In this document: positions 2,368 to 59,019 of the stretch, in pieces | How positions within the stretch are numbered: the stretch's first letter is position 1 | Layout: every line of letters begins with the position of its first letter | NCBI GenBank assembly: GCA_964352335.1 | Contig: CAYGRO010000001.1 | Span: forward strand, 31,830 to 95,829 | Length of the DNA: 64,000 nucleotides | Direction of reading: 5' to 3' | From: an uncultured Gammaproteobacteria bacterium | Lineage (GTDB): Bacteria > Patescibacteriota > Patescibacteriia > VMEV01 > CAYQCH01 | Notes under the pieces: generated by a model | What the model was told of the DNA's origin: nothing | The model's database searches: none | The model's input: the letters and a program-made list of their open reading frames with translations, nothing else | Position numbers and translations under genes: made by a program

Positions 2368-3168
2368 ATGAAAAAACTCGCACCACTTATTGCGCTTTTG
2401 GGCGTAGTTATCCTTATTTACGTTGTTACACAAAACTTTAAAAGTGGACAAGAAGCACAAGCCCCATTTATTGATAAATCAATGGAAAAATCTATGGAAG
2501 AAAGCCAGGATATTTTGATTACGCCAATTTCACATGCATCCGCACTATTAGATTGGGAAAATGTCATCATTTATATGGACCCAGTTGGAGGAGCTGAAGC
2601 ATTTGCGGGTCAACCCTCTCCAGACATTGTCCTTGTAACAGATATTCATGGTGATCATTTAAATATGGAAACACTTGAATCCGTCTTAACTAATGACACG
2701 ATTTTAATCGCACCAAAAGCTGTTTCTGAAGAATTACCTATTCAATTACAAAAACGAGTACTTGTTTTGAACAATGGAGAAATAACAACACAATTAGGTT
2801 TCGATATCGAAGCCATTCCAATGTATAACTTACCAGAATCAGATGATGCTTTTCATATAAAAGGGCGTGGAAACGGGTATGTCTTAGAAAAGAATGGTAA
2901 ACGTGTCTATATTGCAGGTGATACGGCAGATATCCCAGAGATGCGTAACCTAAAAAATATTGATATTGCTTTTGTACCAATGAACCTTCCCTATACAATG
3001 ACGGTAGAATCAGCAGCAGATGCAGTATTAGAATTTATGCCTAAACAAGTTATTCCCTATCACTTTAGAGGGCCTGACGGTTTAAGCGATATAAATTTAT
3101 TTAAACAACTTGTTGATGCCGGCGAAAAAGAGATAGAAGTTCGATTGCTTGATTGGTACACACAATAA
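2368..3168 (+). CDS. Secreted MBL-fold metallo-hydrolase
   Basis: N-terminal signal/transmembrane segment, a DIHGDH metal-binding motif (HxHxDH variant), and later His and Asp residues. Confidence 0.55.
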   Translation: MKKLAPLIALLGVVILIYVVTQNFKSGQEAQAPFIDKSMEKSMEESQDILITPISHASALLDWENVIIYMDPVGGAEAFAGQPSPDIVLVTDIHGDHLNMETLESVLTNDTILIAPKAVSEELPIQLQKRVLVLNNGEITTQLGFDIEAIPMYNLPESDDAFHIKGRGNGYVLEKNGKRVYIAGDTADIPEMRNLKNIDIAFVPMNLPYTMTVESAADAVLEFMPKQVIPYHFRGPDGLSDINLFKQLVDAGEKEIEVRLLDWYTQ

Positions 3169-3188
3169 TACATGCTATCCCTCTAAAA

Positions 3189-3217: not shown

Positions 3218-3808
3218 TTAAAAAATCAATGTCTTCCAATAGCTCCAATATTTTATCAATATTGCGAAAATAATTACGCCATACATTAGCGCTAATACAA
3301 TCCATCTGTATTTTTCTAAGAATGCTCCAATCCACTTATATTTTTCTGGCAAACGCAGGTATTCCTTGCGCAGATTATAGAGGGTTAAGCTCAAAAACAT
3401 TGGAATCGTCACAGTCCAAACAGCCATACAGTATAAACAAAGAGCACCAATGACATAAACACTTTGGTAAAAAAGCCAATAAATGAAAGTGATTGCAAGT
3501 GTCATTCCTGTCTGTGCAGTTAACCAATACCACCGTTTAAACTGCGCTTGTGCCATTATCGCCATCCCCATACAAATCATAATGGCAAAACCAGCAATAC
3601 CGATAAAGGAATTGGGAAATCCAAAAACAGAAGCCTGTGGCGTTTGCATAACAGAACCACAACTTAAAAGAGGATTGATGCTACAAGGGGGGGCATATAA
3701 AGGGTCGGCAAGGATATTCATTTTCTCTGCTGTAATAATGCCAGAAAACAAAAGTCCAATGAGCCCACCAAAAACAAGCATTGATTGCAAGAATTTCTTA
3801 GAAGACAT
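3218..3808 (-). CDS. Vitamin K epoxide reductase (VKOR) family membrane protein
   Basis: Multi-transmembrane protein with a conserved Cys pair (CSINPLLSC) and the CxxC active-site motif (CLYC). Confidence 0.7.
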   Translation of the reverse strand: MSSKKFLQSMLVFGGLIGLLFSGIITAEKMNILADPLYAPPCSINPLLSCGSVMQTPQASVFGFPNSFIGIAGFAIMICMGMAIMAQAQFKRWYWLTAQTGMTLAITFIYWLFYQSVYVIGALCLYCMAVWTVTIPMFLSLTLYNLRKEYLRLPEKYKWIGAFLEKYRWIVLALMYGVIIFAILIKYWSYWKTLIF

Positions 3809-3902
3809 ACGCTTTTGGATAAAAGTAAAGTGATTCTACTGGATTATACTACTTTGAGCAGAAAACTACGTCAATTTATGCGATAAAGCGCTCTTATTGC
3901 TA

Positions 3903-4385
3903 TTATACTGACTTAATTGTGTAATAAATATTAGTCACCCACTTGCTTGGATCTGATTCCATTTTTGGATTAACCTCATATTCTTCCACCGCAAAACCTC
4001 CCATCTCTAAACGCTGTTCTTTTAAATACTCCCCCATATCCTGATGAAGCTGGAACATCTTTTCATATCCACCAGTATGTACATATTTCAAAGCTATTTG
4101 TGGTGACACATTAGATAAAGTAAATTCTGTTCCTTCTAACTCGCTTTCCTCAAATTGTTTAACAGGAAAAGTGATAGCAAAATCTGTTGTACCCTCTTCT
4201 TGATTCCATGCATAATAAAATGTTGTCATTGGGCCAATAGGTTGTATGTTTTTTTCATCAAAATAGGTAAATATCTTTTCGCCTACTTCTCTATAAGTGT
4301 CTTGATTTGTTGCAATGCTCAATGGCACAGTTTGTCGTATTCCAAAATAAGTTCCACCAGCAAAATCTGTTTTTTCTATTTTCAT
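3903..4385 (-). CDS. GyrI-like (SbmC/AraC effector-binding fold) small-molecule-binding protein
   Basis: A 160-aa protein with the sequence pattern typical of the GyrI-like domain. Confidence 0.45.
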   Translation of the reverse strand: MKIEKTDFAGGTYFGIRQTVPLSIATNQDTYREVGEKIFTYFDEKNIQPIGPMTTFYYAWNQEEGTTDFAITFPVKQFEESELEGTEFTLSNVSPQIALKYVHTGGYEKMFQLHQDMGEYLKEQRLEMGGFAVEEYEVNPKMESDPSKWVTNIYYTIKSV

Positions 4386-4403
4386 AGTTAAATTTACTAA
4401 ATT

Positions 4404-19333: not shown

Positions 19334-19946
19334 GAAACACTTATATCTGTCCCCATTCTTTATAACTAAAGTCTGGTATGGCAGAGAAAAGAACCTATCG
19401 CGACCGCGCAGAATATCTCAAAAAAGCTGTTGCAAAACGTAGACGAAAGTTACGTGAACAAGCTGTTGAGTATATGGGCGGTAAATGTCAACGCTGTGGC
19501 TATAAAACTTGCATCGAAGCATTAGATTTCCACCATCTTGATCCTCGTGAAAAAGAATTTGGAATATCTGCATCAGGAATGACTCGTTCTTGGGAACGTA
19601 TCAAAACTGAGCTAAATAAATGCATCATGATTTGTGCAAATTGCCATCGCGAAGAACATGCGAAAATTAAACGCAGCTTTAACGAGTAATCGTTATCGAA
19701 AATTGGGTGAATTCGGGGAAGCCTGTTAAATGGTAATCCCGAGCCAATCCTTCGCCGGGAAGTTACTCCCGCAAGCAAGCTTAGCCAAAAATGGCAGGCC
19801 TGCCTGCCGTAGCTTTAGCGAAGGCAGGTGTAGAGACTAGTAGGTGAGTCCCAACAATAATCCTACAATAGCGCCCAATACCCCATAGCTTTATGCGACG
19901 GGGTAATGAGATAGTCCACCCCATTATGAAAATAATGGATAATGTG
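19334..19946 (+). other. Group I intron (IC3-like) in the tRNA-Asn anticodon loop, between positions 35 and 36
   Basis: The core contains GGTGTAGAGACTAG and GAGCCAA..CTTCG..CCGGGAAG, matching the Azoarcus/cyanobacterial tRNA-intron catalytic core. The 5' exon ends in U and the intron ends in G. Confidence 0.75.
19378..19689 (+). CDS. HNH homing endonuclease encoded within the group I intron
   Basis: CQRCGYKTC…DFHHLDP…N…CANCH gives CxxC / HH / N / CxxC-H HNH motifs. The ORF lies inside a peripheral intron region. Confidence 0.8.
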   Translation: MAEKRTYRDRAEYLKKAVAKRRRKLREQAVEYMGGKCQRCGYKTCIEALDFHHLDPREKEFGISASGMTRSWERIKTELNKCIMICANCHREEHAKIKRSFNE

Positions 19947-20001
19947 TAACCAATTGGTCGTGGGTTCGAGTCCCACCCTCGGAGCTTGCTAGCTAGATTC
20001 T

Positions 20002-22784: not shown

Positions 22785-23873
22785 ATGTTTTCAGACCATA
22801 TTTATCTTTATGCATTACTTAGTTTACCTAAACTAGGCCCAATTAAAATCAATCAGTTATTAGAATTTTTTCATTATGATAGTAAATTATGCTGGGAATC
22901 AATAGACAATGAAAATATACAAGGCATTTCAACTGATTTTCTCTACCACTTGCAAAAAGAAAAGAAAAAAATTAACTTATTCCAACTTCAAGAACGGCTG
23001 AAAGAAACAAATACACAGACAATTGCTAAAACAGATAAAGACTACCCGCATCTTTTAAAAGAAATCCCAGACGCTCCACCACTTTTATTCTATAAAGGTA
23101 TTTTGCCAAATAACCAGCGAAAACTTATTACCATTGTCGGCACAAGAACAATGTCGAGGTATGGTGAAAGCGTTTTACAAGAACTCCTCCCTCCTCTCTG
23201 CCAAGAACAAATAGGAATTATTAGCGGACTTGCATTTGGTATTGATGCACAATCACATAGAATAGCGATAAATCAAAAAACTTATACTGCAGCTGTTCTT
23301 GGATCGAGTGTCGACAAAATTACTCCTTCTAGACATGACCTACTTGCACAAGAACTTTTAGAATCTGGTGGCGCGATTATTAGTGAATCTCCCCCTAAAA
23401 CAAATGCTTATGACGGAAGCTTTCCAAGAAGAAACAGAATATTAGCTGGATTTTCTTCACTTACGCTTATCATTGAAGCAGCAGAAAAGTCTGGAGCACT
23501 TATAACGGCAAGATACGCCCTTGATTACAATCGAGATATCGCAACAATTCCAGGGTCAATATTTTCTCAAACAAGTAAAGGATGTAATAACTTGCTAAAA
23601 AATGGAGCTATTACCATAACAACCCCACAAGATATTATTGATGCATTAAAAGTAGAAACACAGCTTATAACGGAACAATTGCCATTAGGATTAAGCGAAA
23701 TTGAAATTCTCGTCCTTCAACTACTTAAACCTGAGCCACAACCAATAGATCTCTTATTAGCTACTTATACTGGCAGAAGTGCTGAATTATTTAACTTATT
23801 AACAATGCTAGAGCTAAAAAACTTGGTCGAAAATATCCCAGGATATGGCTATGCACTAAAGAAAAAACTGTAA
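22785..23873 (+). CDS. dprA: DNA-processing protein DprA (Smf)
   Basis: Rossmann-like DprA core with GLAFGIDAQSHRIAI and GTR…SRYG motifs. Confidence 0.8.
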   Translation: MFSDHIYLYALLSLPKLGPIKINQLLEFFHYDSKLCWESIDNENIQGISTDFLYHLQKEKKKINLFQLQERLKETNTQTIAKTDKDYPHLLKEIPDAPPLLFYKGILPNNQRKLITIVGTRTMSRYGESVLQELLPPLCQEQIGIISGLAFGIDAQSHRIAINQKTYTAAVLGSSVDKITPSRHDLLAQELLESGGAIISESPPKTNAYDGSFPRRNRILAGFSSLTLIIEAAEKSGALITARYALDYNRDIATIPGSIFSQTSKGCNNLLKNGAITITTPQDIIDALKVETQLITEQLPLGLSEIEILVLQLLKPEPQPIDLLLATYTGRSAELFNLLTMLELKNLVENIPGYGYALKKKL

Positions 23874-35439: not shown

Positions 35440-36912
35440 TTACCGGCCGTTAAGCCAGTTGCGAAAGGAAGTAAAGAAGCTGGTGGGCTTCAATTTGATT
35501 TCGCTAGAGAGGCAAGCTTCGAGGGCTTGCTTCATCTCTTCGGGGGTCTTGTACCTTTTTTCTGGGCTTTTCTCCATCGCTTTCTTGAGGACCTTACAGA
35601 ACCTCTTCGTCAGCTTTGGTGACCCCTCGGGCAAAAGGTCATTTGGATGCGGAGGCTTCCTATAGAGCACCGCCTTGAAGAGTTCACCCAGATTCTTGCC
35701 ATGGAATGGCTTTTGCCCTGTTGCAAGGTAGAACAATGTCCCCCCCACAGAGCAAAGATCTGACATGATCGTCACCCGCTGACCGTCCACCTGCTCAGGG
35801 GACATGTAGTCGGGTGTGCCGATGATCAACCCGGCGATGGAAAGGGTTTCCGTCTCCGTATTAATCGTGACAAGCTCTTCAATGACGTCCAAAGAAACTC
35901 CTCCACCGTCTCGCTTGTCCTCGGCATTACTTCGAGAGCAGCCATAGTCAAGCAATTTGATGGTACCGTCACTCTGGATCACGATGTTTTCAGGCTTGAT
36001 GTCACGATGCACAATTTTCAGCACATCGTGAGCAACCTGTAGCACCGAGCATAACTGAAGCCCAATATGAATAGCCTCCACTTCAGAAAAGGCTCCCTTG
36101 CTCTGGACAGCTTGTTTTAGGTTTTGGCCCTCAACAAACTCTTCAACAGAAACAAGTCCAAAGTCCTCTACCAAAAGCGCGATTGGACGCACCGAGTAGG
36201 GAGAGAGAATCTTTCCCTGCAACTCGAAGGCCCGACTCACGCGCTTACACAACTCGAGCACGGACTCAGAGTCGCCAACGGTATTGAAGTGAATTTTGAT
36301 AGCCACGTCTTGCTGTGTCGCCAGGTCAAGACCACGAACAACTCGGCCGTTGCTTCCAAGACCGATTTGCTCAATGAGCTTGAAGCGATCGTGCAAGACA
36401 GCCTTTTTCGCGATGGCGATATTGATACGACCAGTGACCAACTTTGCAGCAAGGTCACATGACTCCACTTGGACAGAGTCATTCACCGTATCAGCCCCAT
36501 CACAGTCAGCGAGATGTGCAGCAACCTCATCGACAACAGGCGTCCCAATGGACACCACCTCGGACGGGTTGTTCACAACAACTTCAACGGAGCTAGGAAT
36601 TTGACTCCGCGAAACCAATCGCACAGTCCCACCTGTATCGCTCAGCCTTGCCAGCTCTCGCCGACTAAAGCGATCTGAAGCAGTGCGAGCAATCTCCTTA
36701 GCAACATTGGGCTCTTCTGGCTTCTTCAAATGACCCTGGTTGGTGATCGAAAGAAGAAGCTTGCACTTCGCACACTTGAATTCGAGAATCCCCTCCTCGA
36801 TCATGGGGTTAATGTCACGAACCCAAGAATAGCGCTTAGCCGTTTTGGCCGGGCTACACCGTGGACACGGTTGATACAATGGCACCTGAGGGCGCCGCTT
36901 TTTGTCAGTCAA
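35440..36912 (-). CDS. Hanks-type Ser/Thr protein kinase with an N-terminal zinc ribbon; high GC (about 52%); TTG start with a strong SD
   Basis: HRDIKPENI, DYG and GTPDYMSPE motifs. N-terminal CPRC…CAKC. AGGAGG lies 7 nt upstream of TTG. Confidence 0.75.
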   Translation of the reverse strand: MTDKKRRPQVPLYQPCPRCSPAKTAKRYSWVRDINPMIEEGILEFKCAKCKLLLSITNQGHLKKPEEPNVAKEIARTASDRFSRRELARLSDTGGTVRLVSRSQIPSSVEVVVNNPSEVVSIGTPVVDEVAAHLADCDGADTVNDSVQVESCDLAAKLVTGRINIAIAKKAVLHDRFKLIEQIGLGSNGRVVRGLDLATQQDVAIKIHFNTVGDSESVLELCKRVSRAFELQGKILSPYSVRPIALLVEDFGLVSVEEFVEGQNLKQAVQSKGAFSEVEAIHIGLQLCSVLQVAHDVLKIVHRDIKPENIVIQSDGTIKLLDYGCSRSNAEDKRDGGGVSLDVIEELVTINTETETLSIAGLIIGTPDYMSPEQVDGQRVTIMSDLCSVGGTLFYLATGQKPFHGKNLGELFKAVLYRKPPHPNDLLPEGSPKLTKRFCKVLKKAMEKSPEKRYKTPEEMKQALEACLSSEIKLKPTSFFTSFRNWLNGR

Positions 36913-37041: not shown

Positions 37042-37947
37042 ATGAAAAAAATAACCATACAAACGCTTTTAATCCTCGTTTTAGGGCTATCCCCCTTGCA
37101 AACTTTTGCCTACGAGAAAAAAACGCCCTATGAAGATTTCACTTCTTGGTATTTAAGAGAATCAGGAAGAGAAATCAAACCGTATACAGCATCTGCTCTT
37201 ATAGACGCAGAAACATTAGAACCGCTTCATTATCATGCAGAAGAACAGCCAATCCCAACTGCTAGTTTGGTAAAATTATTTACTGCAAAAACGATATTAC
37301 TCTACCCACAAAACTGGTCAGAACTATTATCATTTACAAATGCAGATAATGAAACAAGTTTACGCCCTCATGTAAACCCAAAAGATTTTATCCCAATTAT
37401 TCGCATGCAATCTGGTGACACCCTTACCCGACTCGATGCTTTTGCAGGAATGCTTATAGCGAGCGCAAATAATGCACCTTATGCTTTAGCAAGAACAGTT
37501 GCTTTTTCACTAGATGAATTTGTTTCGGTTATGAATGCAACAGCAAAGGAATTAGGTATGACAAATACCCACCTGGTAGAACCGAGTGGTTTGTCGTTAG
37601 AGAATATGAGCACAGCCAAAGATCTCGTTCATGGTGGATGCCAAGTATATAAAGAAGAAATGGTAAAAAAATACGCCGGTTATAGTTATTATAAATTCCA
37701 AACCACACTAGCTGAAGAAAAAATATTTACTCATACCCTGTATTCCCTTCGTTATGACTTAGATTATTCAGTTTATACTGCAGCTAAAACTGGTTACATA
37801 GATGAAACAGGCTATCATGTCATCGCAGAGATGAAAACACCAAAAGGTAAAACTGTTTGCGCCGCAATACTTGGTGCCGACTCTCGAGCAAGATTAGACG
37901 AAATGCTTCTCGCCATGAGACTATGGCTAGATGAAATGTATTTGTGA
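37042..37947 (+). CDS. D-alanyl-D-alanine carboxypeptidase (peptidase S11 / PBP5 family)
   Basis: Signal peptide, SxxK (SLVK) and KTG motifs. Confidence 0.7.
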   Translation: MKKITIQTLLILVLGLSPLQTFAYEKKTPYEDFTSWYLRESGREIKPYTASALIDAETLEPLHYHAEEQPIPTASLVKLFTAKTILLYPQNWSELLSFTNADNETSLRPHVNPKDFIPIIRMQSGDTLTRLDAFAGMLIASANNAPYALARTVAFSLDEFVSVMNATAKELGMTNTHLVEPSGLSLENMSTAKDLVHGGCQVYKEEMVKKYAGYSYYKFQTTLAEEKIFTHTLYSLRYDLDYSVYTAAKTGYIDETGYHVIAEMKTPKGKTVCAAILGADSRARLDEMLLAMRLWLDEMYL

Positions 37948-38037: not shown

Positions 38038-38066
38038 TAAAAAAACGCCTATGAAGGCGTTTTTTC
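38038..38066. terminator. Terminator AAAAAACGCCTATGAAGGCGTTTTTTC
   Basis: Perfect hairpin with flanking A- and T-runs. Confidence 0.7.
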
Positions 38067-38204: not shown

Positions 38205-41200
38205 TTATCTAATTGTAATAATCTCATTTTCACCAATATACTTGATAGAAGGATCATCAAGTTTTATCAAACTCAACCCCTCAACAAGATACTCCCCAGC
38301 AGTTGCCACAGTACGTGCCCTATATCGAATAAGAATACGTGGACATTCTTTATTTAGAACAAGAAAAGCTTTTGCTTTATGCGCAGATGTATCATAAGCC
38401 GACTGTTCACATCGAGAATATTCCGTCCCCCAATTCATTCCACGAGTAATCGCTTGTAAACCACTCGGTAATAGATCCGTTAAGGCATAATTTCCATAGG
38501 CAGTAGAAGCATTAGTGCGCACCTCAATTTCTATATCAATTTCTTTATTCGGATTAATGACAGTTGTAGGTCCAGCACCTTGTTCATAAATACGGCTCAC
38601 CGTTACTCCCTCAATACTTTGTGGAGTTTGTCCTGCTACATCATATTGATAAAGAGCTTGTACATTTCCTCTAACAGATTCTAAAGAAAGTGTTTGCAAT
38701 TGTTCTTTTGTGAGATTAAGACCAAAGCTTTCAAAACCTTTTAATGTAACAAATTGTTCTTCTACGCCTGCAATCACTACAAAAGACATTTCAGAAATCG
38801 GCTGTCGCTCTAAACGCAATTCCCAGAATCGGGTATATGAAATAGGGTCAACAATACTTTCTTGCGCATTAAGATATGCATCAAACTCTTTCCAAGAAGA
38901 ATCTCCAACGGTAAATGCAATCAATCGAGTTAACTCTGTATACCACTGGATTTGAGTTGTACTATCAATTCCTTCCGCTTGAAAATAACGTTGTCCATTT
39001 TCTACTGCAGTATTCACCAAGATATCATCAAGAATTAATCGTGCTTGATTATAATCTCCATAGAGAATAAAGGCATCCGCCAATAAAACTCTGTCTTCTA
39101 ATTGAATATTTTCATTAGCTATAAATGCTTTTAATTCTGCATAATATGGCTTTTGCATACCAGCCAAACCACGCAATGCAAGCGAAATTTCATTTGGAGT
39201 TGAATCATCAGACAAGAGAGATTCAAAATAAGCTTGTAAGTCTTGTGTCTGAGCTTTATCACCTAATAATGTCGCAATAGAAGAACTTAATGTACTATCA
39301 CCACTTCCAAATGGAAATCGAGCATAACCACCATCTGGGTGTTTGTACTCAGAACCAATAATATCCTCTCCACCAAAAGCTGGAAGATCAAAATATTGTT
39401 GCTTCAATTCAGTAATTTTTTGTTGAGCGACGATATAATCTAATTTACTTGCACAAGAACATAATCGAGATAAAGCTGTATAGGCATTTGCACCTAAAGG
39501 CGATGCAAATCTTACCGAAACACGCCCCTCAGCTTCTTCTGGAACAATAGCTTGCCAATTTTCTTCTATAGTAACAACCTCTTGCTTTTGAGTTAAACTT
39601 CTTCCTGGCAATACAGAAAATGTTTTGATAATGATGTCTTCATATTCCCCACTTAGTGCACGTATTGCATAAACATATTTCCCTACACCAGTTGTTTCGA
39701 TCGGAAAATCAACAATAGCAATAGACTCTGCTTTTTCTTGCTTCGTAGAAATCGGAAAATCACCCAAACTATAGTGTTTCCCCTCTTCTGCCAATAATGG
39801 ACCATAAAGAGAATAAGTAACTTCTGACTTGGCAGAAAGCTGGTCAGAATAATTTCGTGCTGACACAATGATATCGTCTCCGAGAATATAAGAATCACTT
39901 TGAATGGCTTGCACAACAAATGATTGTGCAACCGTAATTTCCTTTTTCCCTAACCCACCTTGATACTGATTTGTACCAGTCGTCGCAACAATCACCCAAG
40001 TAGTAATATTATCAGGCAACTCAAACTCAACGACTCCTTTTCCATTTTTATCTGTTTGTACAAATTGATAGGTCGCTTGTTCCAAGAAATTTACTCGTTC
40101 ATCTCCTCCTCCGCCCCCCATGCCATCTGGACCCAATGTAGAATTATGTGTTGCGGTATTAACAAGAATTCTTTCGTATTGCCGACTGAATAAATCATTC
40201 AATGGATTTTGACTCCCCGCAAAAACATCTAAATCTAAGTAAGCTTTATCTAAAACATTTACATTCACCAAAGTTTCTACAGGATTCCCGTTCGTATCAG
40301 TAATAGTAATTTCTGACTTCACTTTGTCTCGAATAGCATAATCATTTTTATCTGTATCTACAGAAATAGTTAATTCATAGGGATCAGAACTAAGGTTAAG
40401 CTCTAGTAATCGATAATGTGTAAAATAGATTTTCCCTTCATAAACTGTCGCAGCGCCAATATGAACATTTGGTAAGTACTCTTCAGTAAGTTCAATGTCT
40501 TGACGGCTTGTCATTGAAACAAAATAGTTACTAAGATTTGGTGAAAGCGTAAAAAATAGTGTCGCAGCATCATTTGGTAACGTACTCATATTTGCTTCCC
40601 CTAAAATAGCCTTCACACCAATTGAATCACCAACTTGATAAGCTTGAACATCCTCATTTTCTAAATCCACCCAAAATTCTTGTTCAAAAAATGAGCTCGT
40701 TCCATTTTGACGAATAAATGGTTCGTCTGTTTCATTTTCTACATAGACTTTTCCAAATGGCAATGAATAATCAGTAAGATAGGTATAATCTAAATCATAC
40801 CGACCTAAAGAATCCAAAGCTTTCACAATAATTTTATAATTTGTATTTTCTTGTTTGGTAAATGAGAAATTCACTTCCCCTAATTCATTCGTTAAACCAG
40901 TTTGGTTTTCAACTGTCGTTTCATTGGTAGAAAAATCATAATAAAAATCTGTTTCATTTGTGAGTGGATTAAGCTCAGAAAATAAAGGAGACTTAGATGA
41001 TGTAATAGCAATAACGCTCGCTTCAAATGGAACACCTTGAGCGATATGCATTTTTTTATCTCCATCGCTTGGATATTGTTCATCATTTGTTAAATATTCA
41101 ACCCCCTTAACTTTAGCTGAGACCTCTACCTGTTGATTCTTCTCATTCGTTTCTATTTTAATATCAGTATAATCTTGAGTTACTGTCCAATAAGCATTTC

Positions 41201-43469
41201 CAACAACTTCCGTTTCATAACTACCAATTGGAATAACTCTAAGCAATGCTAAATTACTAGAATTACAACCATACTCTCCGCATGAATCAATACGAGAAGG
41301 AACCGTTACTTGTGCCTCTCCTAATTCATTTGTAGAAACAACCCCAGTATAATCACCAGAAATTTGTAAATCAATAAATCGGGCTGGTGTTCCATCAAAT
41401 CGAGCTGTTGAAATAGTTACGAGATTACTTTCCCCTGCTTCTATTCTTTGATATTGAGGATTTACAATAAGAGAAAGTTCAGGTGTAGCAAATACTGTTA
41501 CCTCAAATGATTGTTCTTTAAAGTAATGCTCACCATCATAAATGGTAAAAGAATAATAGCCATCACGTAAATCCTGTAATTGCATCGAACCTGTAAAAAA
41601 CCCTTGATCATTAACTGAGACAATTTCTTCTTGTACTTTCACATTACTATATGATCCATATTGGGCATTCCATAAGGTAACTTCAGCTCGAACCTCGTTT
41701 AATGATCCACCTTCACGATCGATAAGCCCCCAATATCGAATGGTGTCATCTGGGTGAACTAAATATTGATCAAGGTGAAAAAAACCAGTGTATTCGGGTT
41801 GTTGATCTTTTGGATCATTCCAAATTCTCACAGGATGTATTGTTGTCTGCTCACCTTGCACAAGCTTAAATGCTTCTTGTTGATTTAATTGAGCAATTTG
41901 AATCGCAGAAACAGTCACAATTCCTTCTTGATTACTAGTTCCAAGTAATTGACCACGAGAATAAACACTTACTCCTTCAAGTGGTTGATTTGATTCAGTA
42001 TCAACAGTCCAAACTAAACCTGATGTTTCTGATAAAAGAATATAAGCTCCAACAGAAGAAACAGACCAATACAATAAATCCACTTGCCCCGCAATAGAAG
42101 CCTCTACTAAATAAACTCCTTCAGTTTGTAAAGCATTTAATGCAAATAAATTTCTTGAATATTCTTCTTCTCCATTTATAGAATATTCTGCAATTGGATT
42201 CGTTAATCCAAATTCTTGTAGCAATTGCTTTGAGGCTTGTGTTTTGATTTGTGTTGGAATCCAATTATCTAATCGAGAGGTTTTTGCAATAACTTGATCT
42301 ACAACCGTCGCATCTAAACGATGCACTTTTACATTAAGCGGTGCATCTTGTGGCAATCTATAACCATAACCAGAAACTTGGACAGATTCCCCTGGCTTAC
42401 TTTGTAAAACTTCAGATGTATAACTGAAACTAGAACCCACTAATGACGCTGACTCACCAGTTGTAAACGAAAATTGATAATCTGAATTTAATTGCCATTC
42501 AGATTGATTTGCAGATGCAGGAATAAATGAAGGCTGAACCCCAAATCCATTTTTAAGTGTGATTGTATATAAAACGTCTTTTTCCCATGGAGTTTCTGGT
42601 ATAAGTTTAATCGTTCTAAAATCTTGTTCGATTCTTACTGAATGATTTGGTTGGATCTCTAAATAAGAAGAAATATCTTGCGTCTTGGTATGACTTACTA
42701 TAATTTCTACTGCATTATTTACAGGAACCCCTACACTTCTATCTGCTGGTGCTGTAGATTGAATCTTAAAATGATCCGCAACTTCAAATACCCAATGATA
42801 GGTAAAAGGTTCTAACCCCTCTTCTCCATCGATAACGGTTGCCGCAGAAACTTGTACAATTTCTCCTTGTCTTAAAGTCTCTACAGGATCGATAGTATAT
42901 TCATAACCACGCTTTATTGTTTTTATTGTAAAAGCAGAATCATTTGAAAAACGTAGATACTTTTCTAAGTCGTTTTTAGAAATTTTTGACTGACTTGTAA
43001 GAAGAAAATCTGTCTCTTCAGATATAACTCCAAAATTATCTACTACTTCTGGGGTAATTGTAAAATTATCATGAGCATAAACAGCTGGTATTAAAATCCC
43101 ACCACTTTCTCCAGGTTTAATGATATTAATAAGCCCACTTTGTTGAAAAAGAGAAAAAGCAACCACTGCAGCAACGGCAACAAGAGCAACTCCAGAACCT
43201 GCTAATGTTTTAATATGTAAAGCTCGCCAAATTGTTTTTTTCGTTTTTTGTCGCTTTGTTTCTTTTTGATGAAGCAAAGCTAAAACTTTCTTTTCTAAAT
43301 TTTCTTTAAATTCCATGCGATAAGGTTTATTTTCGTGACGAGCAGAAATCAATAATTTAGCTGTATCAACAATTGCTTGTTCATCACTATCTAATTCAGC
43401 ACGATCTTCCGCGGAAATATTTCCACGTTTTAAGAGGGTGTCGACAATTTGTTGAAATCTTTTTTTCAT
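38205..43469 (-). CDS. Giant (1754 aa) single-pass membrane-anchored extracellular protein: short cytoplasmic N-terminus, one transmembrane segment, very large beta-rich ectodomain
   Basis: A TGA-free ORF of 5.3 kb. N-terminal ~75 aa charged segment, then a transmembrane helix (LAGSGVALVAVAAVVAFSLF). It lies 14 nt downstream of an ECF sigma factor gene. Confidence 0.7.
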   Translation of the reverse strand: MKKRFQQIVDTLLKRGNISAEDRAELDSDEQAIVDTAKLLISARHENKPYRMEFKENLEKKVLALLHQKETKRQKTKKTIWRALHIKTLAGSGVALVAVAAVVAFSLFQQSGLINIIKPGESGGILIPAVYAHDNFTITPEVVDNFGVISEETDFLLTSQSKISKNDLEKYLRFSNDSAFTIKTIKRGYEYTIDPVETLRQGEIVQVSAATVIDGEEGLEPFTYHWVFEVADHFKIQSTAPADRSVGVPVNNAVEIIVSHTKTQDISSYLEIQPNHSVRIEQDFRTIKLIPETPWEKDVLYTITLKNGFGVQPSFIPASANQSEWQLNSDYQFSFTTGESASLVGSSFSYTSEVLQSKPGESVQVSGYGYRLPQDAPLNVKVHRLDATVVDQVIAKTSRLDNWIPTQIKTQASKQLLQEFGLTNPIAEYSINGEEEYSRNLFALNALQTEGVYLVEASIAGQVDLLYWSVSSVGAYILLSETSGLVWTVDTESNQPLEGVSVYSRGQLLGTSNQEGIVTVSAIQIAQLNQQEAFKLVQGEQTTIHPVRIWNDPKDQQPEYTGFFHLDQYLVHPDDTIRYWGLIDREGGSLNEVRAEVTLWNAQYGSYSNVKVQEEIVSVNDQGFFTGSMQLQDLRDGYYSFTIYDGEHYFKEQSFEVTVFATPELSLIVNPQYQRIEAGESNLVTISTARFDGTPARFIDLQISGDYTGVVSTNELGEAQVTVPSRIDSCGEYGCNSSNLALLRVIPIGSYETEVVGNAYWTVTQDYTDIKIETNEKNQQVEVSAKVKGVEYLTNDEQYPSDGDKKMHIAQGVPFEASVIAITSSKSPLFSELNPLTNETDFYYDFSTNETTVENQTGLTNELGEVNFSFTKQENTNYKIIVKALDSLGRYDLDYTYLTDYSLPFGKVYVENETDEPFIRQNGTSSFFEQEFWVDLENEDVQAYQVGDSIGVKAILGEANMSTLPNDAATLFFTLSPNLSNYFVSMTSRQDIELTEEYLPNVHIGAATVYEGKIYFTHYRLLELNLSSDPYELTISVDTDKNDYAIRDKVKSEITITDTNGNPVETLVNVNVLDKAYLDLDVFAGSQNPLNDLFSRQYERILVNTATHNSTLGPDGMGGGGGDERVNFLEQATYQFVQTDKNGKGVVEFELPDNITTWVIVATTGTNQYQGGLGKKEITVAQSFVVQAIQSDSYILGDDIIVSARNYSDQLSAKSEVTYSLYGPLLAEEGKHYSLGDFPISTKQEKAESIAIVDFPIETTGVGKYVYAIRALSGEYEDIIIKTFSVLPGRSLTQKQEVVTIEENWQAIVPEEAEGRVSVRFASPLGANAYTALSRLCSCASKLDYIVAQQKITELKQQYFDLPAFGGEDIIGSEYKHPDGGYARFPFGSGDSTLSSSIATLLGDKAQTQDLQAYFESLLSDDSTPNEISLALRGLAGMQKPYYAELKAFIANENIQLEDRVLLADAFILYGDYNQARLILDDILVNTAVENGQRYFQAEGIDSTTQIQWYTELTRLIAFTVGDSSWKEFDAYLNAQESIVDPISYTRFWELRLERQPISEMSFVVIAGVEEQFVTLKGFESFGLNLTKEQLQTLSLESVRGNVQALYQYDVAGQTPQSIEGVTVSRIYEQGAGPTTVINPNKEIDIEIEVRTNASTAYGNYALTDLLPSGLQAITRGMNWGTEYSRCEQSAYDTSAHKAKAFLVLNKECPRILIRYRARTVATAGEYLVEGLSLIKLDDPSIKYIGENEIITIR

Positions 43470-43483
43470 AGAATTCCTGTGTC

Positions 43484-44068
43484 TTATTGATTCATTGTTT
43501 CTGTAAGCTTTTGTAATTTTTTCACGGCTCTATAAATTCGGACAGAGACAACATTTGGACTAAGCTCTACAACGGCAGCAATTTCTTTTACCCCTAATTC
43601 TGCCAAAAACCGAAGCTCTACCATTTGTTGATCTTTTTTAGATAATTTCCCTACGAGCGTTAATACCTGTTCTTTGGTTTCTTTTGTCATCACTTCTTCT
43701 AAAGCTGATTTAGATTCATCCATTTTTTCTGGTAATGATTCTGAGGCAAACTCCTTATTTCTACTGGCTTTACGGTAGTAATCTGTAAGTGTATTGGCTG
43801 CAATTCGGAAAAGCCAAGCACCAAAAGGCGCTGAGGTAATAACAAATTTTGGTAATTTATTAAATGCTTTTAGAAATACTTGAGAAGTTAAATCCTCTGT
43901 CGTTTGTTCATGCCCCGTTCGACGCATGAGATAAGAATAGATTTTTGGAAAATAGTGATTGTATAATTGAGTAAAAGCTTGAGAGTCACCATTTTTGGCG
44001 GCCTTTACTAATTCCTTTTCATTCTCCAATGCAAAATCTTCCTCTTTTTGTAAGCTGAAGAAGATCAT
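43484..44068 (-). CDS. ECF-type RNA polymerase sigma-70 factor
   Basis: Region 2 (…FTQLYNHYFPKIYSYLMRRTG…) and region 4 HTH (…EIAAVVELSPNVVSVRIYRAVKKLQ). Confidence 0.75.
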   Translation of the reverse strand: MIFFSLQKEEDFALENEKELVKAAKNGDSQAFTQLYNHYFPKIYSYLMRRTGHEQTTEDLTSQVFLKAFNKLPKFVITSAPFGAWLFRIAANTLTDYYRKASRNKEFASESLPEKMDESKSALEEVMTKETKEQVLTLVGKLSKKDQQMVELRFLAELGVKEIAAVVELSPNVVSVRIYRAVKKLQKLTETMNQ

Positions 44069-44287
44069 TCCTTTCTCTAATAAATGCTGTGATAAAGAGA
44101 GAATGGCTGAGTGAACGAATGAGGCAAGAATAAAGGTCATTTCCATTTTTTAATCTTTTCTGACTATGACAACGTATGTATTTTTCTTTTATTACAATTA
44201 TGTATAGAATAGCGTTTTTTTCCTTATTTGGATACTCAACTAAGCAGAATATGATACTATAGTACAATAATACTTGAATAGAATTTT

Positions 44288-44539
44288 ATGCGCTTTCTTA
44301 TTGGATTTTTGGCCATGGCAGTTGGCTTTATTATCACATGGAAATCTGAATGGCTTTTTAGAAATTTTGGAACAATTCCCTTTTTTGATAAATATTTAAA
44401 AACATCTGGAGGAGGACGACTTGGCTATAAGCTTGTTGGGATTTTATTTATTTTTGTAGGAATCTTGGCGATTACAAATTTACATATTCGCTTGCTCACA
44501 CAAATTGCAAGCTTTTTTACCTTTGGACAAGCAGGATAA
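44288..44539 (+). CDS. Small membrane protein, hypothetical
   Basis: 83 aa with two to three predicted transmembrane helices. Confidence 0.45.
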   Translation: MRFLIGFLAMAVGFIITWKSEWLFRNFGTIPFFDKYLKTSGGGRLGYKLVGILFIFVGILAITNLHIRLLTQIASFFTFGQAG

Positions 44540-46532: not shown

Positions 46533-46600
46533 GAGCCCTCCTGCCTGCGATAAAGCAAAGCGGGAGGGCTCTTATGCGTGAGTCTCGTCGGGAGACGAGT
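46533..46600. repeat. GC-rich hairpin cluster (GAGCCCTCC…GGAGGGCTC; CTCGTC-GGGA-GACGAG)
   Basis: Includes the CCTGCCTGC motif. It lies at the 3' end of the high-GC gene. Confidence 0.5.
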
Positions 46601-46632
46601 TAGATTAGGCTGCTCACGAGCCTAGTGGATGG

Positions 46633-47616
46633 CTAGCCGGCGTAGTTGCCGTTGTTGCCGTCACCGAAGCTCTGACCGTAGATGGTCTTGGGCTCGGTCT
46701 GGAGCATGCCCTTGAGGAAGCGGTCCGTGTCGCCGACGGCCTCGTCGAGGTTGGCGATGATCGAGTCGATCAGGCGGGTCGACTGGTCGGTGTCGACGAG
46801 CTGCTGACGGATCATCATGAGGGCGAAGTACTTGCCACCGATCCGAGAGAAGATCGCGCGGTTGTAGCCGAAGGGCTCGAGCTTGAGCGAACCCTCGACC
46901 AGGCTCTCGCTGATCGCCTGGAACTGGCGGGTCCCGTAGGTCACGGGGGTCCAGGTCAGGTCGCAGCTGGAGAGGTTGTAGTTGGCCGTCACGAAGACCG
47001 GGATGGCCACCTTGGCACCCTGCACGACCAGGAACGTCACGACGTCCTGCTCGATGAAGGTGTTGGGGTCGAAGTCGATCACGCGGGTCGTGCTGCCGAT
47101 GTTGACCTTGTCGTTGTCGACGACCGTGACGTGCTGGAAGCGCACGTTCTTGATCGCCTTGGTGATCGAGCCGCCGTTCAGCAGGTTCAGGAAGGAGATC
47201 AGCGAGTTGTCGAACTGCTCGGTCAAGCCCATCTGGGCAATGACCCAGGCAGGGATGGTGTTGAACACCATCTTGGTCTTGGAAGCGGCGCCGATGGAGC
47301 GCTTGATCTTGAGGACGTTGGCCGGAGTGATCAGGCCGTACTCCTGCAGCTGCTCGAGGAAGACGCGCGGCGTCATGTTGGTGTCGCTGTCGACCTCGAA
47401 GACGTCGTGCAGGATCTCCGCGTTCTGGGTGGAGATCGTGATCTGCGTGGTCACGTTGCCGTTGTTCGGCTTGGAGGTCTTGAGAGGGGTCTCGGTGACC
47501 GCGGTGATCGTGGTGTTCGTGCGATCGCTGACGCGCTTCGCCATGGAGGTGAAGGTGTCGACGATGGCCGCAGTGAAGAGAACGAGAACCGGGTGCGAGA
47601 GGGTGTGAGCGATCAT
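46633..47616 (-). CDS. Hypothetical 327-aa protein with extreme GC (about 60%) and GC3-biased codon usage
   Basis: GGAG-N6-ATG. The high GC coincides exactly with the CDS. A second 327-aa ORF in another frame (46661-47644) is an artefact of GC richness. Confidence 0.55.
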   Translation of the reverse strand: MIAHTLSHPVLVLFTAAIVDTFTSMAKRVSDRTNTTITAVTETPLKTSKPNNGNVTTQITISTQNAEILHDVFEVDSDTNMTPRVFLEQLQEYGLITPANVLKIKRSIGAASKTKMVFNTIPAWVIAQMGLTEQFDNSLISFLNLLNGGSITKAIKNVRFQHVTVVDNDKVNIGSTTRVIDFDPNTFIEQDVVTFLVVQGAKVAIPVFVTANYNLSSCDLTWTPVTYGTRQFQAISESLVEGSLKLEPFGYNRAIFSRIGGKYFALMMIRQQLVDTDQSTRLIDSIIANLDEAVGDTDRFLKGMLQTEPKTIYGQSFGDGNNGNYAG

Positions 47617-48250
47617 TGAAATCTCCGTTATCTGACCAGTCCATATTTCAGGACATCTTGGTCAACAGTTGCGTATGTCGAGAGAGCCCAATGCTCCCCC
47701 AACCCCTGGTGAAGCTAATTAACTCCGAAGTGGAGATTACTAACCCCGACCTCTTCAGCTAACGAGAATAAAGCTGAAGGGATCGGAGTTATCAGCTTGT
47801 CCGAAGACGAGCGGAAAACTCCTTACCCCAAAGTGTAATTGGAAAGAGCGCAGACTTTATAAATATAGAGTCTGTAATAGAAGTTTACGAGAAAGAAAAC
47901 TTGTATTACCCACCCTCAAAGCAAATTTTTTGGAAAAAAAAAAGAAGCTCACTGGTTGTCGACTGAAGAAAACCAGGGCCCTCCTCACATTCTTTGCTGA
48001 TCAGCAAAGTTATTCATTGCTCATAAAAGGCAGTCGACACCCTTCAATATGCAAATAGATAACTTCGCTTACCAGTCAATAATGTGAATGAACTTTCCAA
48101 AATTTGCTACGTGTTAAGTTAAATACTACCAGCACAAAAACTTGTTGTCAATATATGACAACAGTAATTAATTCTCCTAAATTTCTAGCTATCAACTCCC
48201 CGCAGATCGAAGCTTCAGCGAAGACGTGTGGATAACTTTTAGAAAATCGA

Positions 48251-57417: not shown

Positions 57418-59019
57418 ATGAAAAAAGTCATTTTACTCGTCGGTGTGCTTATTGTATTGATTGGGGGCTTTGTCTTTGTAAAACCATTTATACAACCAGA
57501 AGAACAAGTTGCAGAACTCTCAATGGAAGCACTCAGCAATGTCACAACTGAAACAAATTTTATCCCAACTTTTACCGAAGCCTCAATTGATGCCCCACAT
57601 ACATACAATGATACAACCTATGCTTTTAGAGGTTCGTCATTAATTGATATCAATAATGACGGAACTGAAGAACTCTGGTTAGCTGGTGGGAAAAACGAAC
57701 CAGATTCTTTATTTGAATATACGGCATCAGGATTTCGTAATATTGCTGAAACAACAGGACTTGCAACAAATACCTCTACTGCAGGTGGGGCCATTTCGAT
57801 AGATATAGACAAAGATAATGATACTGATTTAATTATTGCAAGAGAAGATGGAATTTATTTAGCTATCAACTCAAATGGAAAATTTACCTATCAAAAAACG
57901 GATCTAGCTTTTGAGCAAGATGCAGTACCAATGTCGATTACAGCTGGTGATATTAATAAAGATGGATTTGTAGACTTGTATATTAGTACCTTTAAGTCGG
58001 CAAAGAAATTAAAACTGGCTACATTTAACAATCCGTCAAACCGAACCGCCAATGTTTTTGCATTAAATAATGGAGACAATACATTCACAGATGCAACGGA
58101 TGCATATGGCCTCACATTTAGCCAAAATACATTCCAAGCAAGTTTTGTAGACCTAAATAATGATACTTGGCAAGACCTTGTCCTTTCTACCAATACCGAT
58201 AAAGTTATCATCTATAAAAATAATACAGATGGGACGTTTACAGCATTAGAACCAGTAACCGATCTTGGTTTTTGGATGGGAATGGCGATCGCTGATTATG
58301 ATAATGACGGCGATCAAGATCTCTTTTTCTCAAATGTCGGAAATACAATCCCAGCAAAAAGTGCTCGTGGTGACTTACGATCAGATCAAGTACTTGATCT
58401 TGAATGGAGATTATTAGAAAACAAAGGAGATTTTGTTTTCTCTCTCGCACCAGCAGAAACAGGTCTCAATGGATTTGAATTTGCATGGGGAGCAACATTT
58501 ACTGATTTAAATTTAGACGGATTGCAAGACCTACTTGTTTCAGAAAGTTATGTTAAATGGCCTGCACATAAAATTAAACGACTTGATAGCAGATTATTAA
58601 TGCAAACTGATGAAAACGCCTTTATTGCTGCAACGGAAGCGGCCAATGCTGAAAACCCTTATTATGGAACAACTCCATTAACCTCTGACTTTAATCATGA
58701 TGGATACCCCGATATTATTTGGGCAAATTTAAATGAACCTACACGAGTTTTACTCAATGATGGTGGTAAAAACACTGCCCTTGTGGTGCAATTACCTGAC
58801 ACTGTCGAATACCTTGGTTCTAGAATTGATATTACCTATACAAATGGGAATAAATCATCACATCAAAAAATTGTAGGACAAGGTCTTATGAGCGATACAA
58901 GTTCTGAACTTTTGATCGGATTAGGACAAAATGTAATCGAACAAATCACTCTTACAAAAAGTGATGAAACAACAAGCGACCTTAAAGACCTGATCAAAGA
59001 TAATCGTATTTCTTTATGA
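57418..59019 (+). CDS. FG-GAP/VCBS-repeat protein with a C-terminal ASPIC/UnbV domain (CRTAC1-like), secreted
   Basis: Repeated DxDxDG-type motifs (INNDGTEE, DIDKDNDTD, DINKDGFVD, DYDNDGDQD, DFNHDGYPD) and a C-terminal …LGSRIDITYTNGNK…. Confidence 0.65.
   Translation: MKKVILLVGVLIVLIGGFVFVKPFIQPEEQVAELSMEALSNVTTETNFIPTFTEASIDAPHTYNDTTYAFRGSSLIDINNDGTEELWLAGGKNEPDSLFEYTASGFRNIAETTGLATNTSTAGGAISIDIDKDNDTDLIIAREDGIYLAINSNGKFTYQKTDLAFEQDAVPMSITAGDINKDGFVDLYISTFKSAKKLKLATFNNPSNRTANVFALNNGDNTFTDATDAYGLTFSQNTFQASFVDLNNDTWQDLVLSTNTDKVIIYKNNTDGTFTALEPVTDLGFWMGMAIADYDNDGDQDLFFSNVGNTIPAKSARGDLRSDQVLDLEWRLLENKGDFVFSLAPAETGLNGFEFAWGATFTDLNLDGLQDLLVSESYVKWPAHKIKRLDSRLLMQTDENAFIAATEAANAENPYYGTTPLTSDFNHDGYPDIIWANLNEPTRVLLNDGGKNTALVVQLPDTVEYLGSRIDITYTNGNKSSHQKIVGQGLMSDTSSELLIGLGQNVIEQITLTKSDETTSDLKDLIKDNRISL

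Follow-up and report, generated by a model that had tools for sequence, protein, structure and literature searches.

On the reverse strand of the 64,000-nucleotide (nt) stretch of contig CAYGRO010000001.1 analyzed here (hereafter the window), a gene for an extracytoplasmic function (ECF) sigma factor is followed immediately by a gene for a giant membrane protein of 1754 amino acids (aa), whose ectodomain is assigned, by profile matches and structural modeling, to the alpha-2-macroglobulin (A2M) superfamily. This sigma-A2M pair is a conserved module, and among related loci the presence of the sigma gene goes along with a cytoplasmic N-terminal head on the macroglobulin. The best reading of these data, moderately probable in our estimate, is an autoregulated sigma/anti-sigma pair in which the sensor is a protease trap. 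The original prediction, made from the letters of the window and a list of its open reading frames (ORFs), had envisaged either a giant anti-sigma factor or surface sensor, perhaps an adhesin, or an ECF-regulated giant surface protein; the comparative data fit and strengthen this proposal, except that the unclassified adhesin gives way to a member of the A2M superfamily.

The gene pair and its macroglobulin ectodomain

The ORF of the macroglobulin gene (38205..43469, minus strand) extends from an ATG start to a TAA stop, and its assignment draws on the Pfam A2M match, the relatives and the predicted fold. Its predicted length and its 14-nt distance from the sigma gene are both borne out, and the intergenic spacer (TAAGACACAGGAATTCTATG, 43470..43483, minus strand) contains an AGGA ribosome-binding site; a terminator scan of the window found no terminator-like site between the two genes. 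The upstream gene (43484..44146, minus strand) encodes a bona fide ECF sigma factor, with sigma-2 and sigma-4 domains only and with matches to the ECF models: Sigma70_r2 (PF04542, E-value 5.8e-16), Sigma70_r4_2 (PF08281, 7.2e-11), Sigma70_ECF (PF07638, 5.6e-9), and TIGR02937 of NCBIfam (102.7 bits, with the cutoff at 42.9). The sigma factor belongs to the homologue family P0016-P0030; the closest specific NCBIfam model, that of the BldN family, falls below its cutoff, so that no equivalog assignment is made. Thus, the predicted ECF identity holds, whereas the start at 44068 proposed with it does not: the first ATG gives a protein of 220 aa, the NCBI call is 218 aa (P0016), and the close homologues are all 213-228 aa long and share an N-terminal extension, for which reason the start is probably at 44146 or 44140. 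The -10 element of the promoter (44174-44171) is upstream of the ATG at 44146. The extension itself, residues 1-35 in the window sigma (44041-44146, minus strand), is hydrophobic or amphipathic (e.g., MEMTFILASFVHSAILSLSQHLL). Among the sigmas of the close relatives L001-L007 (the window family) it spans ~25-35 aa and keeps its character, not its sequence; it is missing from the A2M-linked sigmas of Bacillota and of a more distant group of loci (L008, L010, and L014; hereafter tier-2), whose sigmas are 40-45% identical.

The giant ORF contains no in-frame TGA, whereas the other two frames have 22 and 100 of these codons; in addition, seven long open frames in the window end in TGA. The standard genetic code therefore holds, in agreement with the original prediction. 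The window has a GC content of ~35% and contains no rRNA gene; the closest named relatives of both the sigma factor and the A2M protein are Patescibacteria (Nomurabacteria, CG10); a patescibacterial source of the window is likely.

ECF promoters typically combine an AAC-like -35 element with a CGT-type -10 element, and a predicted promoter of this type, TGTAAT-N16-CGTT (44171..44196, minus strand), is located 24 nt 5' of the sigma ATG, its motif being conserved in the related loci. In each of an initial set of eight loci, the sequence 5' of the sigma gene reads TGTAA(T/G)-N15/16-CGTT, and TGTAAK-N15/16-CGTT occurs 7-42 nt 5' of the sigma gene in 11 of 11 related loci, with one match in each except L010, which has two. 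The whole window has two matches to this motif against 0.55 expected; the second (23504-23529), antisense inside dprA, is within chance expectation and probably a chance match. The promoter takes the form CGTAAC-N16-CGTTAATA in Bacillota and TGTCAC/T-N15-CGTT in other Patescibacteria, and a generalized motif is present 5' of the sigma gene in 12 of 20 further sigma-linked loci (0.007 expected per search window), compared with only 2 of 44 A2M genes that lack a sigma gene. Given that this ECF-type architecture is conserved 5' of the sigma gene, the operon is very probably autoregulated, with the sigma factor transcribing its own two-gene operon from TGTAAT-N16-CGTT. At the distal end, the terminator scan reports a hairpin, AAAAAACGCC-TATG-AAGGCGTTTTTT (38040..38065, no strand assigned; 11 stem pairs, four of them G-C, and a loop of 4), that sits between the convergent stop codons of the A2M gene and a Peptidase_S11 gene and is likely to be a bidirectional terminator closing both the sigma-A2M operon and its convergent neighbor. 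Among other Patescibacteria pairs, the promoter CGTT coincides with the sigma ATG itself in L034, is placed 7 nt before it in L008 (4968-5003) and L010 (4968-5003), and falls within this range in L039 and L021; this location at or near the ATG implies leaderless or near-leaderless sigma transcripts.

The ectodomain of the giant protein comprises ~1645 aa. The Pfam A2M model (PF00207) matches with an E-value of 8.6e-9 and 35.6 bits, compared with a cutoff of 21; three full-length relatives (55, 38, and 34% identity) have A2M_BRD, bMG3, and MG2 matches, the domains found among the relatives being, in all, A2M_BRD, bMG3, MG2, and bMG10, and the more distant matches of the giant protein are classical bacterial A2Ms. 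An AlphaFold2 (AF2) model of residues 560-1754 has a predicted local distance difference test score (pLDDT) of 80.5 and a predicted TM-score (pTM) of 0.64. In this model, beta-sandwich domains follow one another in a chain; residues 1099-1127 form a disordered loop, residues ~1324-1555 fold into a purely helical domain, and the C-terminal domains consist of beta structure. Foldseek matches this model to Salmonella A2M (4U48, E-value 1.9e-51), E. coli ECAM (5A42, 3.7e-51), and next 4ZIQ, the top A2M matches spanning E-values from 1.9e-51 to 4.6e-45 with a TM-score of ~0.5; further matches include CD109, A2ML1, C5, and TEP1, and the probability is 1.00 for all of these, bacterial A2Ms included. 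A check of the ectodomain for macroglobulin (MG) domains, suggested with the original prediction, is thus answered by an A2M/MG signature in Pfam and an A2M fold in the model, which together rule out an uncharacterized beta-rich adhesin. Judging from the sequence profiles and the model, the ectodomain is a thioester-less member of the alpha-2-macroglobulin/TEP superfamily. The lack of a thioester had been noted from the outset and extends beyond the window: no CxEQ is present in the window protein or in five relatives (six family members), and in the aligned thioester column the PYGCVEQ of classical A2Ms is replaced by CSCASKLD in the window protein and by CSCASKLD, CDCATRLD, or YYAGARLD in the window family; a thioester is therefore excluded.

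Along the ectodomain, the N-terminal part includes a predicted Big_5 Ig-like domain (residues 234-337; 42459..42770, minus strand) that, at an E-value of 1.1e-4 and 23.4 bits, narrowly misses the Pfam cutoff of 23.6 and is clearly above cutoff in a tier-2 relative. The disordered loop (residues 1099-1127; 40089..40175, minus strand; pLDDT 26-39) occupies the position of the bait region, between the A2M_BRD-equivalent and A2M domains, and is a bare loop with DGMGGGGGD at residues 1115-1123. It is followed by the A2M (MG7) domain defined by the PF00207 match, with the conserved LPDNITTW (residues 1137-1204; 39858..40061, minus strand), by the all-helical, thioester-domain-like region lacking CxEQ, as delineated from the secondary structure of the model and the thioester column (approximately residues 1324-1555; 38805..39500, minus strand), and by a C-terminal beta domain (residues ~1621-1754; 38208..38609, minus strand) that appears bMG10-like from its modeled strands and a weak Pfam match (E-value 0.086), bMG10 being above cutoff in a tier-2 relative.

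The A2Ms of the tier-2 loci carry an additional Hint/intein-like module (L008, from 5579 onward; L010, from 5536 onward; L014, 6589-12210, residues 1126-1241), detected above cutoff with the PT-HINT model (E-value 9.4e-13), and a Hint cysteine is found in many further loci among the 64 analyzed below. The module sits exactly within the bait-position glycine loop (...ERGG|CFxxGT...YVHN|(D/E)KGGG) and retains Cys1 and the terminal His-Asn, features that it shares with the autoprocessing domains of the bacterial-intein-like (BIL) and pretoxin-Hint types, in contrast to the window protein, which has the bare loop only. The +1 residue is Asp or Glu, so that canonical splicing is unlikely; these sequence features suggest a self-cleaving BIL domain rather than a splicing intein. 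We know of no described Hint insertion at a macroglobulin bait position, no specific search having been made. The module may render the proposed switch self-cleaving or, alternatively, replace the thioester chemistry lost from the thioester domain (TED).

Conservation of the pair and the cytoplasmic head

In the window family, an ECF sigma gene lies directly 5' of the A2M gene and on the same strand, with a spacing between a 14-nt overlap and a 10-nt gap, while the other neighbors vary; the tier-2 loci, which belong to a CG10 bacterium, a genome of Nomurabacteria, and one further assembly, show the same order of a sigma gene and an A2M-like gene, here coding for 1847-1927 aa. Further relatives were sought in one genome per species, using the A2M-region (LPDNITTW) pattern in a broad alignment, a narrow alignment having found none, and were detected in at least 518 species-representative genomes, mostly of Patescibacteria, Bacillota, and Chloroflexota. 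For 64 of these loci with usable 5' context, drawn from the same three phyla, ORFs were called and searched with a hidden Markov model (HMM) of the sigma factor. An ECF sigma gene is located directly 5' of the A2M gene in 20 of them, all from Patescibacteria and Bacillota, at spacings that range from a 44-nt overlap to +164 nt and do not exceed 23 nt in 19 of the 20. Conservation of the gene pair, one of the checks proposed originally, is therefore evident in the window family, in tier-2, and in 20 species-representative genomes.

The topology of the window protein follows from a single segment. Kyte-Doolittle windows above 1.6 are confined, in the entire protein, to residues 84-117, and the sole hydrophobic segment, at ~89-107, agrees with the single transmembrane (TM) helix expected from the original prediction; we place this Ala/Val-rich helix at approximately residues 87-108 (43146..43211, minus strand). 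A K/R-rich stretch precedes it, which indicates a single-pass protein with its N-terminus inside, and no lipobox is present at the N-terminus. The N-terminus had indeed been called cytoplasmic, at an estimated ~75 aa; the cytoplasmic assignment stands, and the size is revised to ~86 aa. This head (residues 1-86; 43212..43469, minus strand) is the candidate sigma-binding, or anti-sigma, domain, on the evidence of its AF2 model, its invariant residues, and its co-occurrence with the sigma gene. Taken together, gene adjacency, the N-in single pass, and a head that is helical in the AF2 model reproduce the position and topology of ECF anti-sigma factors, as had been claimed. An A-x-A/acidic motif that follows the TM helix was considered as a signal-peptidase site specific to signaling and set aside, since it also occurs in sigma-less relatives.

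The most telling comparison is between heads and sigma genes. When A2Ms are divided into long-headed ones, in which no hydrophobic segment begins before residue 40, and short-headed ones with a signal-peptide-like N-terminus, a sigma gene accompanies 20 of the 25 long-headed proteins and none of the 39 short-headed ones among the 64 loci (p = 2.7e-12 in a Fisher test, which disregards the shared ancestry of these loci). In a neighbor-joining (NJ) tree of 70 ectodomains, admittedly a rough tree with long branches, the sigma-linked proteins fall into at least five clades and parsimony requires at least 10 changes of state. Several close contrasts are apparent in which a sigma-less relative retains the homologous TM helix and lacks the head (L070 compared with L022 and L020; L079 with L075; L092 with L037, L073, and L028). 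Moreover, in two loci that were checked, related sigmas without an A2M partner (41 and 37% identical) are followed by genes for single-pass proteins with other ectodomains, namely a 187-aa protein in L012 and a 621-aa protein with a beta-propeller in L013. Anti-sigma factors usually follow such a pattern, related sigma genes being paired with downstream genes for variable sensors, and these two partners with their differing ectodomains fit it.

The AF2 model of the head (pLDDT 72) contains four predicted helices (residues 3-15, 20-24, 28-45, and 51-84), and a juxtamembrane motif, KPyRmeFKxxLxxKv, is conserved. The identity of the head to its counterparts in the relatives (70, 41, and 33%) is close to the whole-protein values, which implies that the head is under constraint. 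Sigma-linked heads of both phyla have in common a juxtamembrane helix of the form P-x(2-4)-F-[KQ]-x-x-L-[KR]-x-x-[IL] (in the window, KPYRMEFKENLEKKV), and hhalign connects the window-family head with the tier-2 heads through this juxtamembrane segment only (E-value 5.7e-4, probability 30%). A search of 1.84e9 representative proteins with the window-family head profile recovers the giant A2M family only; the other matches, P0138 and P0139, are repeat proteins aligned over several short stretches with a local "LLKRG.IS..D" pattern, and we read them as chance.

Proposed mechanism and its alternatives

From the architecture and the co-occurrence, it appears fairly probable that the cytoplasmic head of the A2M protein binds the sigma factor and holds it at the membrane. 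Under this proposal, the sigma factor would direct transcription of both its own gene and the gene for the 1754-aa protein, within an operon made up of promoter, sigma gene, macroglobulin gene, and terminator; one TM helix would anchor the protein with its N-terminus inside, such that a thioester-less A2M trap is displayed on the surface of a single-membrane bacterium; and the helical head of ~86 aa would act as the cognate anti-sigma domain that retains the sigma factor at the membrane. With an ectodomain of the A2M superfamily, the likely signal becomes proteases. From the function of A2Ms and the usual route by which single-pass anti-sigmas are inactivated, we tentatively suggest that induction starts with a proteolytic attack on the ectodomain or its trapping-type rearrangement, after which the protein would be cleaved within the membrane and the sigma factor set free. 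Proteolysis of the ectodomain, or the conformational change, would thereby take the role of the site-1 event, and the freed sigma factor would give rise to more sigma and more trap, a self-amplifying surface defense that could also serve host-dependent Patescibacteria. The complete protease-sensing ECF pathway, with the A2M protein as the anti-sigma sensor and a tripped trap leading through a site-1-like event and degradation of the head to free sigma and further trap, remains doubtful as a whole.

Several observations weigh against this interpretation. No detectable homology links the heads to known anti-sigma domains: a Pfam search of 16 heads (that of the window and 15 others) up to an E-value of 10 found no anti-sigma family, a broad profile of 19 head sequences matched no chain among the PDB sequences, Foldseek found no significant match in the PDB for the AF2 model of the head (best E-value 1.5) and no anti-sigma structure, and the head contains no HxxxCxxC. 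A likeness of the head to those of the L012 and L013 partners, seen by eye, was dropped at an hhalign probability of ~0.1%. The similarity of residues 1-90 to RskA, RsdA, or ChrR that had been envisaged is accordingly not borne out in Pfam, in the PDB sequence-profile search, or by Foldseek on the AF2 model; NCBIfam likewise reports no anti-sigma family in the window head, and the broad profile recovers almost nothing among 5.8e9 proteins, a result that is uninformative. By sequence and by model, membership of the head in the known anti-sigma domain families is not established. As for the association itself, the significance of the head-sigma correlation is tempered by the shared ancestry of the loci and the count of transitions by the roughness of the tree, and five long-headed A2Ms lack a sigma gene, their heads being devoid of the shared juxtamembrane motif. 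No site-2 protease gene is present in the window. The DGMGGGGGD core of the loop at the bait position is invariant in the family, whereas classical A2M bait regions vary in sequence. Finally, the N-terminal extension of the sigma factor could be a membrane-binding or autoinhibitory segment and might itself be regulatory.

Conceivably, the A2M protein is a mere cargo of the sigma factor, an envelope-defense trap whose head serves anchoring, localization, or coupling to secretion or quality control, for example, while control of the sigma factor falls to something else, be it the N-terminal extension of the sigma, a Ser/Thr kinase, or an anti-sigma factor encoded at another locus; we regard this alternative as possible, if rather unlikely. 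In its favor, every homology test of the head against anti-sigma domains was negative, and candidate controllers do exist: the hydrophobic N-terminal extension of ~35 aa in window-family sigmas, which tier-2 sigmas lack, a Ser/Thr kinase gene that is two genes from the pair in the window as well as in L001, a RskA_C-like gene near the pair in L008, and a small ORF resembling a zinc anti-sigma (ZAS) protein in L006. Yet each of the three genes just named (for the kinase, the RskA_C-like protein, and the ZAS-like protein) is limited to a single lineage, and the sigma extension is missing from most sigma-linked pairs. Furthermore, in several clades the head comes and goes with the sigma gene, the TM anchor being retained, and an anchor alone would need no head. 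Autoregulated ECF sigmas, moreover, normally require a co-expressed inhibitor to avoid runaway induction, a general consideration that speaks against a cargo without inhibitory function.

Adjacency and co-occurrence would be equally expected if the head bound the sigma factor and acted positively or in a dual manner, tethering it or activating it after processing of the ectodomain, as in FecR-type regulators, whose N-terminal fragment is required for sigma activity. The Hint module of tier-2, presumably self-processing, recalls the autoproteolytic regulators of cell-surface-signaling sigmas. Pfam scans of the heads, however, detect no FecR-type domain, and the lineages concerned are single-membrane ones without an outer-membrane transducer; nor do the data separate activation from inhibition, and we consider this version improbable. 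That the adjacency is fortuitous or the ORF an artifact of annotation or assembly is practically negligible as an explanation: the sequences all come from metagenome assemblies, and we found nothing else in its favor, whereas dozens of independent assemblies from different phyla contain the pair, its genes overlapping or close together and its promoter conserved, and the ORF has a confident A2M fold, which effectively refutes this possibility. An autoregulated sigma/anti-sigma pair with a protease trap as its sensor thus remains the reading that we prefer.

Genomic context and comparison with known systems

The neighborhood offers no other anti-sigma gene conserved near the pair, either in the window or in the related loci, and the separate small anti-sigma gene that would have spoken against the original prediction is not found as a conserved companion. 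Besides the sigma gene, no flanking gene recurs across the loci, and no ORF with HxxxCxxC is present near the pair in the window. Three candidates were considered and rejected. In L006, an 85-aa ORF with H-x3-C-x2-C (2925-3182) matches zf-HC2 below cutoff (E-value 0.041) and has no counterpart in the window or in L001; it is positioned 5' of the sigma gene, is seen also in one JGI contig, and could, from its motif, encode a lineage-specific soluble protein similar to zinc anti-sigmas. In L008, a gene for a 223-aa single-pass RskA_C-like protein (3726-4397, minus strand; E-value 1.9e-5, below cutoff), which is encoded on the strand opposite to the sigma gene, at a distance of 600 bp and behind a SpoU methylase gene, is lineage-specific and does not occur beside other pairs. 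In the window, an 83-aa protein with two TM segments and no Pfam family is encoded divergently from the sigma gene (44288-44539, plus strand); it is shared by all window-family loci (L001, L004, L005, and L006, at 52-84% identity), is not found in tier-2 or Bacillota, and, being restricted to the window family and devoid of a cytoplasmic domain, is implausible as an anti-sigma factor.

On the other side of the pair, the convergent Peptidase_S11 gene (D-Ala-D-Ala carboxypeptidase; 37042-37947, plus strand) is kept in L001-L003 and L006, and the Ser/Thr kinase gene, two genes from the pair (35440-36912, minus strand), also in L001; both were dismissed as functional partners because they represent local synteny only. 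A TspO gene lies beyond Peptidase_S11, along with the kinase gene.

Elsewhere in the window, a group I intron (19623-19938, plus strand, with flanks to ~19996; Rfam, 75.8 bits) interrupts a tRNA gene, of which the T-arm and the 3' half of the acceptor (GGTTCGAGTCCCACCCTCGGAGC) are at ~19955-19996 and which ARAGORN does not call; an ORF that extends into the 5' part of the intron terminates in ...CANCHREEH, a motif of HNH-type homing endonucleases. At 46600-47650 the GC content rises to 51%, compared with ~35% for the whole window; an ORF of 327 aa in this GC-rich island (46633-47616, minus strand) has neither a Pfam family nor an Rfam match nor tandem repeats, and the island may have been acquired horizontally. 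Another large putative surface protein in this window of low GC content and small genes, of 533 aa with FG-GAP/ASPIC repeats and an integrin-like beta-propeller, is encoded at 57418-59019 (plus strand). Among the relatives, six loci (L039, L040, L059, L067, L076, and L092) come from metagenome-assembled genomes (MAGs) labeled Gammaproteobacteria or Pseudomonadales and cluster with Patescibacteria; they have Collierbacteria-like A2Ms, Hint modules, and promoters of the type found in the candidate phyla radiation (CPR), and on these grounds the taxonomic labels of the respective bins look wrong.

Full-text searches returned no work that joins anti-sigma factors or, in a relevant manner, ECF sigma factors to alpha-2-macroglobulin, and the main text of the ECF reclassification paper contains no mention of macroglobulin. 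If the head is an anti-sigma domain, the sigma-A2M pair would connect ECF sigma/anti-sigma signaling with macroglobulin traps, two subjects unconnected in the literature searched, and would add a new family of anti-sigma heads that escapes current domain libraries. It would also provide an answer to the question of how bacteria without an outer membrane sense and counter extracellular proteolysis. In Patescibacteria, whose life is spent attached to other cells and whose regulators are few, the pair would then be one of a handful of signal-transduction modules for which input and output can be predicted. The TGTAAK-N16-CGTT motif offers a handle for reporter assays and for the prediction of regulons in complete genomes.

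Bacterial A2Ms have been described as two Gram-negative types, of which MagD, of Type II, is devoid of a thioester and traps proteases non-covalently after cleavage of the bait (PMC5764988). The window protein shares with Type II (MagD of Pseudomonas aeruginosa, YfaS of E. coli) the multi-MG fold, a TED-like helical domain, the lack of CxEQ, and association with the cytoplasmic membrane. In contrast to the six-gene magABCDEF operon, the window operon consists of two genes (MagA, MagB, MagC, MagE, and MagF were not sought with dedicated models), and the sole recurrent partner of window-type A2Ms is the ECF sigma gene. Furthermore, the window protein has an N-terminal TM helix and head of its own where MagD has a signal peptide and the MagB partner, its loop at the bait position is an invariant run of glycines, and proteins of this type occur in single-membrane lineages (Patescibacteria, Bacillota, and Chloroflexota) rather than in Gram-negatives.

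Type I A2Ms are lipoprotein-anchored and linked to the PBP1c gene (pbpC). Members of this type (SaA2M, 4U48; ECAM/YfhM, 5A42; 4ZIQ) are the best structural matches of the window protein and have the same order of domains at an identity of ~13%, whereas the window protein lacks the thioester, the lipoprotein signal, and pbpC; the convergent Peptidase_S11 gene, kept in the closest relatives only, is a loose echo of the A2M-PBP1c linkage.

With regard to the regulatory side, RseA, RsiW, and RsiV are single-pass ECF anti-sigmas that contain class I anti-sigma domains (ASDs) and undergo regulated proteolysis, and RsiV binds lysozyme, the very threat that its regulon counters. Like these proteins, the window protein is encoded directly 3' of a sigma gene that is predicted to be autoregulated and, at a distance of 14 nt, co-transcribed, and it is an N-in single-pass protein that combines a helical cytoplasmic domain (50-100 aa in the known anti-sigmas) with a variable extracytoplasmic sensor, which, as in RsiV, would recognize the threat being countered. 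By contrast, its head shows neither sequence similarity nor detectable structural similarity to class I ASDs and has no zinc motif, and its ectodomain, about 10 times larger, would itself be the defense effector. If the head is an anti-sigma domain, this sigma/anti-sigma-like pair with an A2M sensor-effector, TM-anchored, sigma-coupled, and present in single-membrane phyla, would add to the two Gram-negative types of bacterial A2M a third one, distinct in both genomic setting and architecture.

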